This document shows, piece by piece, positions 20,983 to 33,952 of a stretch of 64,000 nucleotides of DNA. Positions within the stretch are counted from its first letter, which is position 1, and each line of letters starts with the position of its first letter. Under the pieces are notes generated by a model. That model had not been told where the DNA came from and ran no database searches. It was given only the letters and a program-made list of their open reading frames with translations. The DNA is taken from NCBI RefSeq assembly GCF_057098645.1, contig NZ_CM169472.1; one strand, written 5' to 3'. Both the position numbers and the translations under genes were made by a program.

Positions 20983-22125
20983 TTAAATTTGCTTTTCATA
21001 CAATCGGTAACGCTTGTACGGCTCCGCCCCAATGCGTTCCAGCATGTTATTCATGCCTGTATTGGTTTCGAGGATCCATGACATCTCCAGCGCATCGATC
21101 TTCCGGCGGGCAAACGGATCGCGTAAGGCTTCAATCAATAACAGCGCAATCACCGGGCCGATGCGGCTGAACTGATACTCGTCCCGCACGCCCATCAGCG
21201 GTACTCGCGCAGTTCGCACACCGCTGACTTTCAAACGCCACAGCAATTTTGCCCAGCCGAAGGGAAAGAGCGATCCGTTCAGATCGGCAATCGCCTCGTT
21301 GATGTTCGGCAAGCCGACAATAAACGCGCAGGGTGCAGAATCAATCTCAGCGATATAGATCATATCGTCCGGCACCAGATATTTAAGTTGATCGCCCATG
21401 GTCGCGAATTCATGTTCGGTAAACGGCACAAATCCCCAGTTGTGCTGCCAGCCAGAGTTGAAAATCTCACGCAGGATCTGCATCTCTTCGGCAAACCGCT
21501 GGCGATTGATGCAGCGAATGGTCACCTTTTTGCGCACCTGATCCATCAGTTTTTTTAGCGCCGGAGAGAAAGTGAGATCGGTTCGCTGCATCCACCACGC
21601 CAGTAAATCAATGCCTTTGTGATAACCCAGTTGTTCAATATGCGCGGCATACCACGGTTTGCCGTGTGGCATCATCGCACAGGGTGGTGTGTCAAAACCT
21701 TCAATCAGTAATCCGCTTTCCTGATTGATATTCAGGCTGAAAGGCCCGCTGATCTTACTTGCACCTTGTGACTTCAATCACGCTTCCGCTGCGCCAAACA
21801 ACGCGGCAAAAACCTGCGGATCATCAATGGCGTCAATCATGCCGAAATGACCGGTATCTTCGCCGTAACACTCGCGGTGTAAGGTATCTATTTGCGCGGT
21901 AATACGCCCAACTATCTGCCCCGCTTTTTTTGCCACCCACGCCTGCCAGATGATATGGTCCGTCCCCGGATTCTTCGCAGACAAATGCTCGCTGCGTTCA
22001 ATGAATAAAGGGGGTATCCAGTTTGGATCATCGGGATAAAGTGATGACGGAAAAGCGATAAATGCCTTAAGGTCATTTTTATTAATTACTTTTTCAATTT
22101 TGATCATCAGCAGATCGCATTCCAT
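20983..22125 (-). pseudogene. yghO: GNAT/FemAB-like N-acyltransferase (yghO-like) interrupted by one in-frame TGA at 21778-21780
   Basis: Track ORFs 21778-22125 and 20983-21777 are contiguous in the same frame; split only by TGA (rc of tca at 21778-21780); reading TGA as Trp gives continuous ...FGAAEA-W-LKSQGASKISGPF... Confidence 0.7.
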
Positions 22126-22486
22126 AGTTCTGTGGATAACAAATAATTAACGGTGAAAAACAGGTTGCAACAGCAACGAACGGCATCTTAATAATCAACC
22201 CAATGAATACAAACGACGAATAAATAGTATTTATTAATGATTACGATAGGGTCAGCGACTACGCAGAAGCGCCACAATGCCTTTTGTCGATTTAAGGCGA
22301 CCGGACAAGGCTTCTTCTTAATATATTCATAAATTAAATATCATTCACAATAAAAACAAAAAACTTAAACTCATTATTTAAATCAATGTTCATTTTCACA
22401 CCGATGAAAATACTATCTCATTTATCTTTTATGCCTATATAATCCACCGCATTATTGTCATTTTATTTTGGATATCCAATTTTTTC
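22126..22486. promoter_or_regulatory. AT-rich divergent intergenic region between yghO and the ligase-SDR-ACP-SPT operon
   Basis: 361 bp, very AT-rich, no ORF; upstream of both divergent transcription units. Confidence 0.4.
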
Positions 22487-24217
22487 GTGGTGTATATGTC
22501 TAATAAAATCTTTACGCATTCCCTACCTATGCGCTATGCCGATTTTCCAACGCTGGTTGATGCTTTGGACTACGCCGCTCTGAGTAGCGCTGGAATGAAT
22601 TTTTATGACAGACGTTGCCAACTTGAAGATCAACTGGAATATCAGACGTTAAAAGCGCGTGCCGAAGCTGGTGCGAAGCGGTTGTTATCGCTGAACCTGA
22701 AAAAAGGCGATCGCGTGGCACTGATTGCCGAAACCAGTAGCGGGTTCGTAGAGGCTTTTTTTGCCTGCCAGTATGCCGGCTTAGTCGCCGTCCCGTTGGC
22801 GATTCCAATGGGCGTTGGTCAGCGGGATTCCTGGAGCGCCAAATTGCAGGGTTTACTGGCAAGTTGCCAGCCCGCAGCCATTATCACTGGTGATGAGTGG
22901 TTGCCACTGGTCAATGCCGCGACGCATGACAACCCCGAATTACATGTTTTAAGCCACGCCTGGTTTAAGGCATTACCGGAAGCCGATGTTGCGCTCCAGC
23001 GTCCAGTTCCGAACGATATCGCCTACCTCCAGTACACCTCCGGCAGCACCCGTTTTCCCCGTGGCGTCATTATCACCCATCGCGAAGTGATGGCTAATCT
23101 ACGTGCTATAAGCCACGACGGCATTAAATTACGCCCTGGCGACCGCTGCGTCTCCTGGCTGCCTTTCTACCATGATATGGGACGGGTCGGCTTTCTCCTG
23201 ACCCCCGTCGCCACGCAACTTTCAGTAGATTATTTGCGCACTCAGGATTTTGCCATGCGTCCTCTGCAATGGCTTAAATTGATCAGTAAAAATCGCGGCA
23301 CCGTTTCCGTTGCGCCGCCGTTTGGCTATGAATTGTGCCAGCGCCGCGTGAATGAAAAAGATCTCGCTGAACTGGATCTTTCCTGCTGGCGCGTCGCTGG
23401 TATTGGTGCAGAACCCATCTCCGCAGAACAACTCCATCAATTCGCTGAATGTTTCCGTCAGGTTAACTTTGACAATAAAACTTTCATGCCGTGCTACGGA
23501 CTGGCAGAAAATGCGCTGGCTGTCAGCTTCTCTGATGAAGCCTCCGGGGTTGTGGTTAACGAAGTGGATCGCGACATCCTCGAATATCAGGGTAAAGCCG
23601 TCGCGCCGGGTGCAGAGACACGCGCCGTATCGACTTTCGTCAACTGCGGCAAAGCGTTGCCGGAACATGGTATTGAAATCCGCAATGAAGCAGGTATGCC
23701 GGTCGCGGAACGTGTGGTAGGCCATATTTGCATCTCCGGTCCCAGTCTGATGAGCGGTTACTTTGGCGACCAGGCTTCGCAAGACGAGATTGCCGCGACG
23801 GGCTGGTTAGACACTGGCGACCTCGGTTATCTGCTGGACGGTTATCTGTATGTCACCGGACGCATTAAAGATCTGATTATTATTCGTGGCCGTAATATCT
23901 GGCCGCAGGATATTGAATATATAGCGGAACAGGAACCGGAAATTCATTCTGGCGATGCGATTGCTTTTGTTACCGCCCAGGAAAAAATCATTTTGCAGAT
24001 CCAGTGTCGGATCAGCGATGAAGAACGTCGCGGGCAGCTTATCCACGCGCTGGCAGCACGGATCCAAAGCGAATTTGGCGTGACCGCGGCTATCGATCTG
24101 TTGCCGCCCCACAGCATTCCCCGAACGTCCTCCGGCAAGCCTGCCCGTGCGGAAGCGAAAAAACGTTATCAGAAGGCTTATGCTGCAAGCCTTCATGTGC
24201 AGGAATCCCTGGCATGA
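22487..24217 (+). CDS. fatty acyl-AMP ligase / acyl-ACP synthetase (adenylate-forming enzyme)
   Basis: 576 aa; adenylation motifs YTSGSTRFPRGV, YGLAENALAV, GEI-type SGPSLMSGY, WLDTGDLGY, GRIKDLIIIRGRNIWPQDIE; start may be GTG 22487 or ATG 22496. Confidence 0.8.
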   Translation: MVYMSNKIFTHSLPMRYADFPTLVDALDYAALSSAGMNFYDRRCQLEDQLEYQTLKARAEAGAKRLLSLNLKKGDRVALIAETSSGFVEAFFACQYAGLVAVPLAIPMGVGQRDSWSAKLQGLLASCQPAAIITGDEWLPLVNAATHDNPELHVLSHAWFKALPEADVALQRPVPNDIAYLQYTSGSTRFPRGVIITHREVMANLRAISHDGIKLRPGDRCVSWLPFYHDMGRVGFLLTPVATQLSVDYLRTQDFAMRPLQWLKLISKNRGTVSVAPPFGYELCQRRVNEKDLAELDLSCWRVAGIGAEPISAEQLHQFAECFRQVNFDNKTFMPCYGLAENALAVSFSDEASGVVVNEVDRDILEYQGKAVAPGAETRAVSTFVNCGKALPEHGIEIRNEAGMPVAERVVGHICISGPSLMSGYFGDQASQDEIAATGWLDTGDLGYLLDGYLYVTGRIKDLIIIRGRNIWPQDIEYIAEQEPEIHSGDAIAFVTAQEKIILQIQCRISDEERRGQLIHALAARIQSEFGVTAAIDLLPPHSIPRTSSGKPARAEAKKRYQKAYAASLHVQESLA

Positions 24218-32372: not shown

Positions 32373-33086
32373 TCAAGAAAGCGCGGCGTGAATTGCGCGT
32401 AGTGACGCTTGCAGAATTTCATCGGCTGGTTGCCGACCATCCAGTTCAAGGATCTTTGCGCCATTGAATGTCAATTGCGGCGTAACGGCGATTTTTTCCT
32501 GTAACGCTGCCAGTTGGTGGTCAGGTTTACGCGCAAACGCGGTTTGTTCATCAATGCCAAGACGAATCAACAATACGGGCAAATAAGACGCCATCCATTG
32601 GTACAGCTTCAGCTCGCGCTGCCTTAACATTTTTATCCAACCGTTACCGCCCGTGGTTTTTGCCAATTGCGGGCCATCAAAGCGAAACCCCGGCACTTCA
32701 ACCTGCGGGTAGCGGTCGGTGATGAGCAGAAAGCCTTGCTGGCTTTTACACAACATTTTGCGAAACTTGTACGCCCGCCAGCAGGAAAGCAGATAGATAA
32801 CCAGAGCAGTAATATTGCCAGGCGGTGTTAAGGGCTTTTCGTGCACATGTGCCGCTTTACTTCGCAAATAACGCCCAAAAGGTGCGCCAATAACAGGGAG
32901 CTGTGAAATCCATTCGCCAATTCGCCCGGACGATTGCCCGAGATAAATGCGTTCTGTTGGCATTCTTGCTGCCAGTTCATTTACCAGGCTTGCCGTGAGG
33001 GTCGATTTACCTGAACCATCACATCCTACAATGGCAATAACACGCACTGGCGTGGAATTAATTATTGACATATTACGTTGATTCAC
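32373..33086 (-). CDS. yghS: P-loop NTPase, kinase-like (YghS)
   Basis: 237 aa; Walker A GCDGSGKST, DRYP motif. Confidence 0.85.
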   Translation of the reverse strand: MNQRNMSIINSTPVRVIAIVGCDGSGKSTLTASLVNELAARMPTERIYLGQSSGRIGEWISQLPVIGAPFGRYLRSKAAHVHEKPLTPPGNITALVIYLLSCWRAYKFRKMLCKSQQGFLLITDRYPQVEVPGFRFDGPQLAKTTGGNGWIKMLRQRELKLYQWMASYLPVLLIRLGIDEQTAFARKPDHQLAALQEKIAVTPQLTFNGAKILELDGRQPADEILQASLRAIHAALS

Positions 33087-33259
33087 GAAAAACCCGGCAG
33101 TAAATAATGTATTGAATATTACGTGGTCCGTGCTCAGAATATCCGTTCAACCTTATTGTGACAATGGTTAATTGTGACATTGACCTGAATTACGCTTTCA
33201 TAAAAACATATTAACCAAATAAATATTTTGGATGGATATTTAAATTTAAGGATATATTC

Positions 33260-33952
33260 ATGCAGTCAATAACACCTCCATTAATTGCCGTTATTGGTAG
33301 CGATGGTTCAGGCAAGTCAACGGTGTGCGAACATCTCATTACCGTTGTCGAAAAATATGGTGCTGCCGAAAGAGTTCATTTAGGAAAACAGGCCGGAAAT
33401 GTCGGTCGTGCAGTGACAAAATTACCGTTGATGGGAAAATCCTTACATAAAACAATTGAACGAAATCAGGTGAAAACAGCAAAAAAATTGCCAGGACCAG
33501 TTCCGGCGCTGGTAATTACAGCGTTTGTCGCCCGTCGCTTACTGCGCTTTCGTCATATGCTTGCCTGTCGTCGTCGCGGGTTAATTGTTCTAACCGACCG
33601 TTATCCTCAGGACCAAATTCCTGGCGCTTACGATGGTACGGTGTTCCCACCTAACGTTGAAGGTGGTCGTTTTGTCTCATGGCTGGCAAGCCAGGAACGT
33701 AAAGCGTTTCACTGGATGGCGAGCCATAAGCCTGATCTGGTCATCAAACTCAATGTTGACCTTGAAGTTGCCTGCATGCGTAAACCCGACCATAAACGGG
33801 AATCGCTGGCGAGGAAGATTGCCATAACGCCACAGTTAACCTTTGGTGGTGCACAACTGGTTGATATCGATGCCAATCAGCCACTGGAACAGGTGTTGGT
33901 TGATGCAGAAAAAGCGATTACGGATTTTATGACCGCGCGTGGTTATCACTAG
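33260..33952 (+). CDS. yghT: P-loop NTPase, kinase-like (YghT)
   Basis: 230 aa; Walker [14 protein letters not shown] motif; divergent from yghS. Confidence 0.85.

Follow-up and report, generated by a model that had tools for sequence, protein, structure and literature searches.

The window analyzed here (64,000 nucleotides; NCBI RefSeq assembly GCF_057098645.1, contig NZ_CM169472.1) contains, at positions 20983-33952, a 13-gene locus that matches the chromosome of Escherichia coli O145:H28 strain RM12581 and its relatives at 100% identity, and that is very probably the E. coli version of the sphingolipid locus of proteobacteria, accompanied by genes that would serve head-group modification and export, and with its yghO gene broken in this genome. 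The locus lies between glcC and pitB on the chromosome, and the same 13 genes are found in the same order and at the same site in E. coli BL21(DE3). A mechanical list of open reading frames (ORFs) and the RefSeq annotation agree on the genes and their limits (Table 1), which bears out the gene list and coordinates of the original prediction, a model's reading of the DNA letters without database searches, and the family assignments were upheld by NCBIfam and Pfam. All 12 ORFs other than yghO are full length in the O145:H28 copy. The GC content of the locus is ordinary for E. coli, and the GC profile gave no sign of a recent foreign origin.

Table 1. Genes and other features of the locus (positions counted from the first letter of the window).
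Feature	Position	Strand	Remarks
yghO	20983-22125	-	bCerS-type N-acyltransferase; pseudogene here, TGG>TGA at 21778-21780; RefSeq 'internal stop'
Divergent control region yghO/aasR	22126-22528	no strand	AT-rich
aasR, fatty acyl-AMP ligase-type acyl-ACP (acyl carrier protein) synthetase for AcpR	22529-24217	+	NF006624, 872 bits
cerR/epi, extended short-chain dehydrogenase/reductase (SDR)-type reductase	24214-25128	+	GATGFIG, YANSK motifs
acpR, dedicated acyl carrier protein	25160-25408	+	DLGLES motif
spt, serine palmitoyltransferase	25408-26580	+	NF047599, 600 bits
Hairpin, putative shared terminator	26583-26617	no strand	16-bp stem, GC-rich
lptG2, LptG paralog	26615-27694	-	TIGR04408, 309 bits
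lptF2, LptF paralog	27691-28761	-	TIGR04407, 319 bits
ytfJ2, secreted YtfJ-family paralog	28792-29352	-	TIGR01626, 212 bits
274-aa divergent CHAD-fold protein	29364-30188	-	Predicted fold
yghQ, MOP/Wzx-type membrane protein, candidate lipid flippase	30188-31537	-	Pfam Polysacc_synt, 1e-8
yghR, thymidylate-kinase-fold P-loop kinase paralog	31583-32341	-	Weak TIGR00041 and Pfam matches; AlphaFold2/Foldseek
yghS, yghR paralog	32373-33086	-	About 45% identity to YghR
yghT, third kinase paralog, divergent from yghS-yghR	33260-33952	+	

The original prediction had recognized in the plus-strand operon the enzyme classes of the bacterial ceramide route, and this is confirmed both by the protein families and by the corresponding proteins of BL21(DE3), to which those of the window are 96.7-100% identical over their full length. 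In that strain ECD_02850-ECD_02854 are yghO/aca, aasR, epi, acpR and spt, as described by Padilla-Gomez et al. in 2022 (PMC9386255). AasR matches its NCBIfam model well above the cutoff of 600 bits and is 98.8% identical to ECD_02851, with a possible alternative GTG start at 22487. AcpR, whose gene lies directly upstream of spt and ends on the spt start codon, is 100% identical to ECD_02853 and carries the phosphopantetheine serine in its DLGLES motif; AcpR(Ec) was in fact shown to bear 4'-phosphopantetheine and to be acylated by AasR(Ec) (PMC9386255). CerR is 96.7% identical to ECD_02852, and its GATGFIG sequence is a Rossmann motif and its YANSK a YxxxK motif, while its NCBIfam matches are HpnA- and OleD-like and all below cutoff; its reductase function in E. 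coli would follow from orthology to ECD_02852 and CC_1164. Overexpression in BL21 yielded sphinganine- and ceramide-like spots on thin-layer chromatography, "possibly by intrinsic enzymes" ECD_02852 and ECD_02850, which the same report assigns as reductase and N-acyltransferase by Caulobacter orthology (PMC9386255).

The same operon leaves little doubt about the class of its last enzyme. Spt conserves the TFSKS lysine motif, and NF047599 (cutoff 500) is the sole alpha-oxoamine synthase model to be matched above cutoff, the BioF (334 bits, cutoff 426), Kbl (298 bits, cutoff 460), CqsA and ALAS models all remaining below theirs. The nearest chains in the PDB are the serine palmitoyltransferases of Sphingomonas with 377 bits, followed at a distance by cysteate acyltransferase (207), Kbl (204), BioF (176-182), ALAS (172) and CqsA (124). 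Clustering of the synthase with BioF or Kbl, the outcome that the original prediction had named as the one to look for against itself, was thus not seen. Because the alpha-oxoamine synthase family is broad, and sub-threshold matches to its other members do exist, one could still argue for a product that is not sphingoid, for instance a CAI-1-type signal, the base of a capnine-type sulfonolipid or a biotin precursor, but such an outcome is extremely improbable, as the Sphingomonas enzymes far outscore every other synthase and the assayed BL21 enzyme ECD_02854, 99.5% identical to the one studied here, makes 3-oxo-sphinganine from serine with a preference for acyl-AcpR (PMC9386255).

The N-acyltransferase role that had been suggested for yghO stands by published orthology, the gene being the ortholog of Caulobacter CC_1154 (PMC9386255), and on that report's assignment it is a bCerS-type enzyme (aca/bCerS ortholog). 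What had been overlooked, however, is that the O145:H28 gene carries one in-frame stop at codon 116, which is TGG in K-12, and that its translation ends after 115 codons, whereas yghO is intact in BL21. As a result of this nonsense mutation the pathway is predicted to halt before ceramide, with ceramide formation blocked in the O145:H28 copy, which would leave at most the long-chain base or traces of a read-through product. A 41-mer search of 5426 complete E. coli genomes recovered the TGA allele in 26 and TGG in 4227; all TGA-bearing genomes that are serotyped are O145, the others being unserotyped genomes of STEC size, and the carriers apparently form one lineage. K-12 has lost far more of the locus. 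An IS5 does lie there, as the original prediction stated, but it replaces 22086-30469 of the window and not a block of 22.1-30.2 kb; gone are the 5' end of yghO, the whole plus-strand operon, lptG2, lptF2, ytfJ2, the gene for the 274-aa protein and the last 282 bases of yghQ, while yghR, yghS and yghT are kept intact.

Around the operons, two noncoding features could be described. The control region of about 400 bases that separates yghO from aasR owes its AT-richness to a GC fraction of 0.42 in 22000-22999 versus about 0.52 around it, which would fit silencing by nucleoid proteins; only weak matches to consensus promoters were found in it, no more than in shuffled sequences, and Rfam recognized no RNA family in 20000-35000. 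The hairpin reported by a terminator scan has 16 pairs, ten of them G-C, occupies the 34 bases that separate the stop codon of spt from that of lptG2, and is probably a terminator shared by both convergent operons.

The genes of the convergent operon are tied to this core by their linkage across species. We collected 80 loci anchored on Spt, from different species and with 10-kb flanks, and scored them with all 13 window proteins. All five core genes occur in 65 of these 80 loci, and the divergent core, yghO and then aasR-cerR-acpR-spt, keeps its layout unchanged across gamma- and betaproteobacteria, Nitrospirae and Desulfuromonadales. The full set of 13 genes is present in 33 loci, three of them from Escherichia and 30, with amino-acid identities of 50-88%, from some 15 further Enterobacterales genera, and its conservation across these genera implies purifying selection. 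From genus to genus the modules appear in shuffled order and with different flanking genes: the yghT/yghS-yghR module directly follows spt in Serratia, while Pantoea coffeiphila has lptF2-lptG2 and the kinases upstream, and ytfJ2, the 274-aa gene and yghQ downstream. The neighboring glcC is absent from every locus outside Escherichia. Judging from these sequences, the 13-gene set behaves as one functional unit.

Of the accessory genes, lptF2 and lptG2 are adjacent and in the same orientation, their products both exceed the curated cutoffs of the models listed in Table 1, LptF2 shares 29% and LptG2 28% identity with the housekeeping pair of K-12, which is encoded elsewhere, and both are present in 57 of the 80 spt loci. 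Olea-Ozuna et al. (2024) proposed that second copies of LptC, LptF and LptG, together with a flippase, move sphingolipids outward in Caulobacter (PMC11324152), and Uchendu, Isom and Klein, whose Figure 2B depicts the UTI89 locus, reported that the Caulobacter lptF2 and lptG2 can be deleted only in the absence of spt, and that LptF2 and LptG2 form a complex and bind LptB (bioRxiv 10.64898/2026.04.12.717747). Compared to the known LptB2FG(C) extractor, the E. coli locus has no copy of LptB or LptC, and its cargo would be a sphingolipid. YtfJ2, which is 54% identical to the YtfJ of K-12 and is found in 35 of the spt loci, has an N-terminus resembling a signal peptide; a search of the PDB returned no solved relative for it.

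YghQ, which also matches PF13440 at 1e-7, is supported as a lipid flippase by a pattern of mutual replacement. YghQ-like genes were found in 41 of the 80 loci and genes for MsbA-like ABC half-transporters in 28, which come from Pseudomonas, Azotobacter, the Halomonas group and a number of uncultured lineages, and in no locus did the two co-occur. In all 28, no more than about 3 kb separates the MsbA-like gene from spt, and this gene mostly starts less than 400 bases past the spt stop codon; in betaproteobacterial loci that have a YghQ-like MOP gene, this sits 90-340 bases past the same codon, while in Enterobacterales yghQ is found elsewhere in the cluster and not right after spt. It is because these genes replace each other that we take YghQ as the likely flippase. 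In the Azotobacter vinelandii locus, the ORFs that follow the MsbA-like gene belong to efflux-pump families or gave no match. In chlorhexidine-adapted K-12 lines, variants were reported in the IS5-truncated yghQ, and deletion of yghQ doubled the minimum inhibitory concentration (PMC8170033), which is an odd phenotype for this gene (6342-7409 of our K-12 locus, L002), as the pathway for its presumed substrate is deleted in K-12.

The chlorhexidine result, obtained in a strain without spt, is one of several that could suggest that the convergent operon serves lipopolysaccharide (LPS) or another envelope glycolipid instead of the Spt product. The permeases do pass the NCBIfam cutoffs for LptF and LptG, YghQ does match polysaccharide-flippase families, and the CptA-like enzyme of certain Pseudomonas loci, discussed below, comes from a family that modifies the LPS core. 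The canonical lptF and lptG, however, are encoded at other sites and share only 28-29% identity with the pair found here, which tracks spt across species and whose Caulobacter counterparts become dispensable only when spt is deleted; furthermore, neither a glycosyltransferase gene nor one for sugar nucleotides is present in the locus. We therefore hold a role in LPS to be very unlikely, and the export of the Spt product to be the better explanation for these genes.

The three putative kinases YghR, YghS and YghT are paralogs with 34-45% mutual identity. The AlphaFold model of YghR, with a pLDDT score of 81 (predicted local distance difference test), has thymidylate kinases as its best Foldseek matches, and these come first also by sequence when a family profile is used. 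Since the Walker A, DR (D131, R132) and RKPDH motifs are invariant in 46 of 46 aligned sequences of the YghR/S/T type, all three paralogs look catalytically competent. Kinases of the YghR type lie beside spt in 46 of the 80 loci, in gamma- and betaproteobacteria, and yghT is always divergent from yghS-yghR. By NCBIfam and Pfam, none of the 13 locus proteins belongs to the LCB5/DAGK family of the Caulobacter ceramide kinase CpgB or to the PgsA-like family of CpgA. The proposal that the convergent operon modifies and traffics the product of the plus-strand operon thus holds as far as its linkage to spt and the Caulobacter LptF2/G2 precedent are concerned, but because the kinases are not of the Caulobacter LCB5/DAGK type, any modification chemistry would differ from the Caulobacter route that the original prediction had invoked.

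A clue to what these kinases might act upon comes from seven Pseudomonas loci (L046 at 11232-16477, along with L038, L041, L043-L045 and L053), where an MsbA-like gene and two genes for YghR-type kinases are followed by one for a CptA-like phosphoethanolamine transferase. The latter scores 840 bits and is absent from every kinase-less locus among the 80. Enzymes of the CptA type attach phosphoethanolamine to an acceptor that carries phosphate, and for this reason the kinases may phosphorylate the lipid; the arrangement suggests that they place the phosphate there, and hints that these seven Pseudomonas species make a sphingolipid decorated with phosphoethanolamine. The pairing of YghR-type kinases with a CptA-like transferase is reminiscent of WaaP/CptA-type decoration of the LPS core, where phosphorylation is followed by addition of phosphoethanolamine. 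Unlike WaaP, however, the kinases have a P-loop fold and not a protein-kinase-like one, the acceptor is presumed to be a sphingolipid, and the E. coli locus has no transferase. In a locus from a Rhodocyclaceae metagenome-assembled genome (L068), a PAP2-type phosphatase and an 864-aa protein of no family adjoin the kinases, and the YghR-like gene at 13271-13966 contains an in-frame stop, being either a pseudogene or the product of an assembly error. Beside yghT in E. coli lies pitB (34001-35500), encoding a phosphate transporter, which is also present in nine loci outside Escherichia, from Citrobacter, Pseudocitrobacter, Hafnia and Pluralibacter, and not in most genera; this adjacency may reflect a connection with phosphate supply or be synteny by chance.

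The 274-aa protein, which had been regarded as an ORFan, has instead 437 family representatives in a profile search of 1.84 billion proteins, and its AlphaFold model (pLDDT 92.7) has the two-lobed, all-helical CHAD fold. It matches no Pfam family even at an E-value of 10 and no NCBIfam model, its profile finds no PDB sequence, and Foldseek alone is weak (E 0.097), but among 13 distant or multidomain relatives the Pfam CHAD domain was recognized in two at E<=1e-3 and in seven at <=0.1. Three of these relatives also contain a kinase domain of the APH/choline-kinase type; P0462, a 983-aa metagenomic protein (L087, 1082-4033), is a fusion of such a domain with a domain of the 274-aa family. The distant relatives (L087-L091) are encoded on short contigs or among unrelated neighbors, and the PLP (pyridoxal phosphate) enzyme next to one of them, considered as a possible Spt, was identified as a PatB C-S lyase. 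In L068 and L074, which are betaproteobacterial loci, the gene for the 274-aa family adjoins one that is yghS-like. CHAD domains have been reported to bind polyphosphate (bioRxiv 10.1101/567040).

Such a combination has a precedent in Sulfolobus, where two paralogs of thymidylate kinase (dTMPK) encoded together with a CHAD protein form the polyphosphate kinase PPK3 (PMC12995831). As in E. coli, the dTMPK-superfamily paralogs of S. acidocaldarius lie beside the CHAD gene while the canonical tmk is located elsewhere. It is therefore conceivable that yghR-yghS/yghT and the CHAD-fold gene are a PPK3-like module that handles soluble polyphosphate or nucleotides and does not act on a lipid, a reading with which the folds, the proximity of pitB in E. 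coli and nine other loci, and the survival of intact yghR, yghS and yghT in K-12 in spite of the loss of spt would all agree. E. coli, however, has PPK1. The kinases moreover stay by spt and travel with it upon rearrangement, which pitB does not do, and where the PPK3 operon includes PPX and SixA, YghR/S/T have neither as a neighbor and are linked to spt and lipid transporters. The regulatory subunit of PPK3 lost the DRX arginine (PMC12995831), which every YghR, YghS and YghT retains, so that no PPK3-type regulatory subunit can be recognized among them. When the profile of the kinase family was used as a crude test, the cPPK3 homolog of S. tokodaii (2plr) scored an E-value of 4e-3, below canonical thymidylate kinases such as that of Aquifex (3e-7), though Foldseek ranks both similarly. 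Membership of YghR/S/T in PPK3 is thus not supported, and a PPK3-like module remote from the lipid strikes us as decidedly unlikely.

Returning to the sphingolipid pathway, a comparison can be made with the locus of Caulobacter crescentus, CC_1152-CC_1168, which encodes Spt, AcpR, AasR, CerR, bCerS, CpgABC, LptC2/F2/G2 and the flippase CC_1166 (PMC11324152). The two loci have in common the five core enzymes, a dedicated LptF2/LptG2 pair, a candidate flippase and the logic of an anionic sphingolipid of the outer membrane. The E. coli locus differs in having no CpgB-type kinase, CpgA-type transferase or LptC2, and in carrying instead of the Cpg set three thymidylate-kinase-fold proteins, the CHAD-fold protein and the YtfJ paralog. 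Standard methods extracted the lipid CPG2 poorly. A plausible sequence of events would have AasR load a fatty acid on AcpR and Spt condense the acyl-AcpR with serine to 3-oxo-sphinganine, both steps having been shown with the near-identical BL21 proteins; YghO would then N-acylate and CerR reduce the intermediates to dihydroceramide, as expected from orthology. On the evidence of linkage and folds, YghR, YghS and YghT might phosphorylate the head group on the cytoplasmic face, with the CHAD-fold protein binding either the phosphate-rich group or the phosphate donor, and YghQ, given its family and linkage, could flip the lipid across the inner membrane. LptF2 and LptG2, driven by the housekeeping LptB, would extract the lipid towards the outer membrane, and secreted YtfJ2 might assist in the periplasm, although this last step is a guess.

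If taken one step further, this scheme would imply that Enterobacterales and some betaproteobacteria possess an undescribed ceramide head group, made by YghR/S/T and the CHAD-fold protein on a lipid that YghQ flips and LptB-LptF2-LptG2 export. Such a head group would contain one or more phosphates, possibly as a pyro- or oligophosphate chain, or might be phosphorylated from polyphosphate, and a route of this kind would be a lipid-directed offshoot of the archaeal pairing of dTMPK and CHAD proteins in PPK3. We put this extension forward tentatively, and consider it unlikely in its full form.

Several observations weigh against assigning the whole locus to sphingolipid synthesis and export. For YghQ, YghR/S/T, the CHAD-fold protein and YtfJ2, the roles are inferred from linkage and fold, and what the kinases act on could instead be polyphosphate or some soluble molecule. 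Those Pseudomonas loci that do have the kinases lack the CHAD-fold gene. YghO itself has zero matches in Pfam or NCBIfam, and its acyltransferase nature depends on the published orthology. K-12 is viable without 8.4 kb of the locus. In the literature we searched, wild-type E. coli is nowhere reported to contain a sphingolipid, and as BL21 with an empty vector is the negative control of the published assays (PMC9386255), the locus in its native state may be silent under laboratory conditions.

These last points raise the question of whether the locus could be an evolutionary relic in E. coli, retained by linkage, at no time expressed strongly enough to be useful, and yielding no lipid in any natural condition. 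Independent losses and damage are indeed on record, in the form of the IS5 of K-12, the nonsense mutation of O145:H28, and, among the 5426 complete genomes searched, the 605 that lack any match and the 770 that cover the locus in part, and the AT-rich control region and the silence of the literature might be read in the same way. Matches to the locus were nonetheless found in 4821 of these genomes, and 4051 keep at least 80% of it at 95-100% identity, which makes it common, and not rare, among E. coli. With the other 12 ORFs at full length here, the BL21 enzymes active, and the complete gene set maintained in some 15 genera outside Escherichia, a relic appears to us hardly likely.

The annotation of these genes could be improved. 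RefSeq has already assigned the name spt, but the product names for 26615-33952 are misleading: lptF2 and lptG2 appear as "LPS export ABC transporter permease LptF/LptG", yghS and yghT as "dTMP kinase", yghQ as "lipopolysaccharide biosynthesis protein", and yghR and the CHAD-fold protein as "hypothetical protein". An involvement in defense was also considered for six accessory proteins, and was rejected, as the PADLOC models returned only P-loop noise. Elsewhere in the window, glcF (16178-17399), for the Fe-S subunit of glycolate oxidase, is a frameshifted pseudogene in O145:H28 according to RefSeq, and is intact in K-12 and BL21.

The reading of the locus as one for sphingolipid synthesis and export is right and was already known, and the expectation that the locus would be unstudied proved wrong, as shown by the work on BL21 (PMC9386255), that on UTI89 (bioRxiv 10.64898/2026.04.12.717747) and the spt name in RefSeq. 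Those two papers treat the five core genes and lptF2/G2, and not yghQ, yghR, yghS, yghT, the 274-aa protein or the ytfJ paralog. New here are the nonsense allele of yghO, the limits of the K-12 deletion, the 13-gene linkage, the motifs of the kinase paralogs, and the mutual exclusion of YghQ- and MsbA-like genes. The presence of a sphingolipid pathway in the majority of E. coli strains has been published, and little is gained by its confirmation. Of more weight now are the identity of the lipid that wild E. coli and its relatives produce, the conditions of its production, and its role in the gut or during infection. The accessory genes, conserved as they are, speak for a phosphorylated head group that would be unlike that of Caulobacter, and offer concrete enzymes with which to pursue it, while the natural knock-outs, the O145:H28 TGA lineage and the K-12 IS5 deletion, are ready comparison strains.

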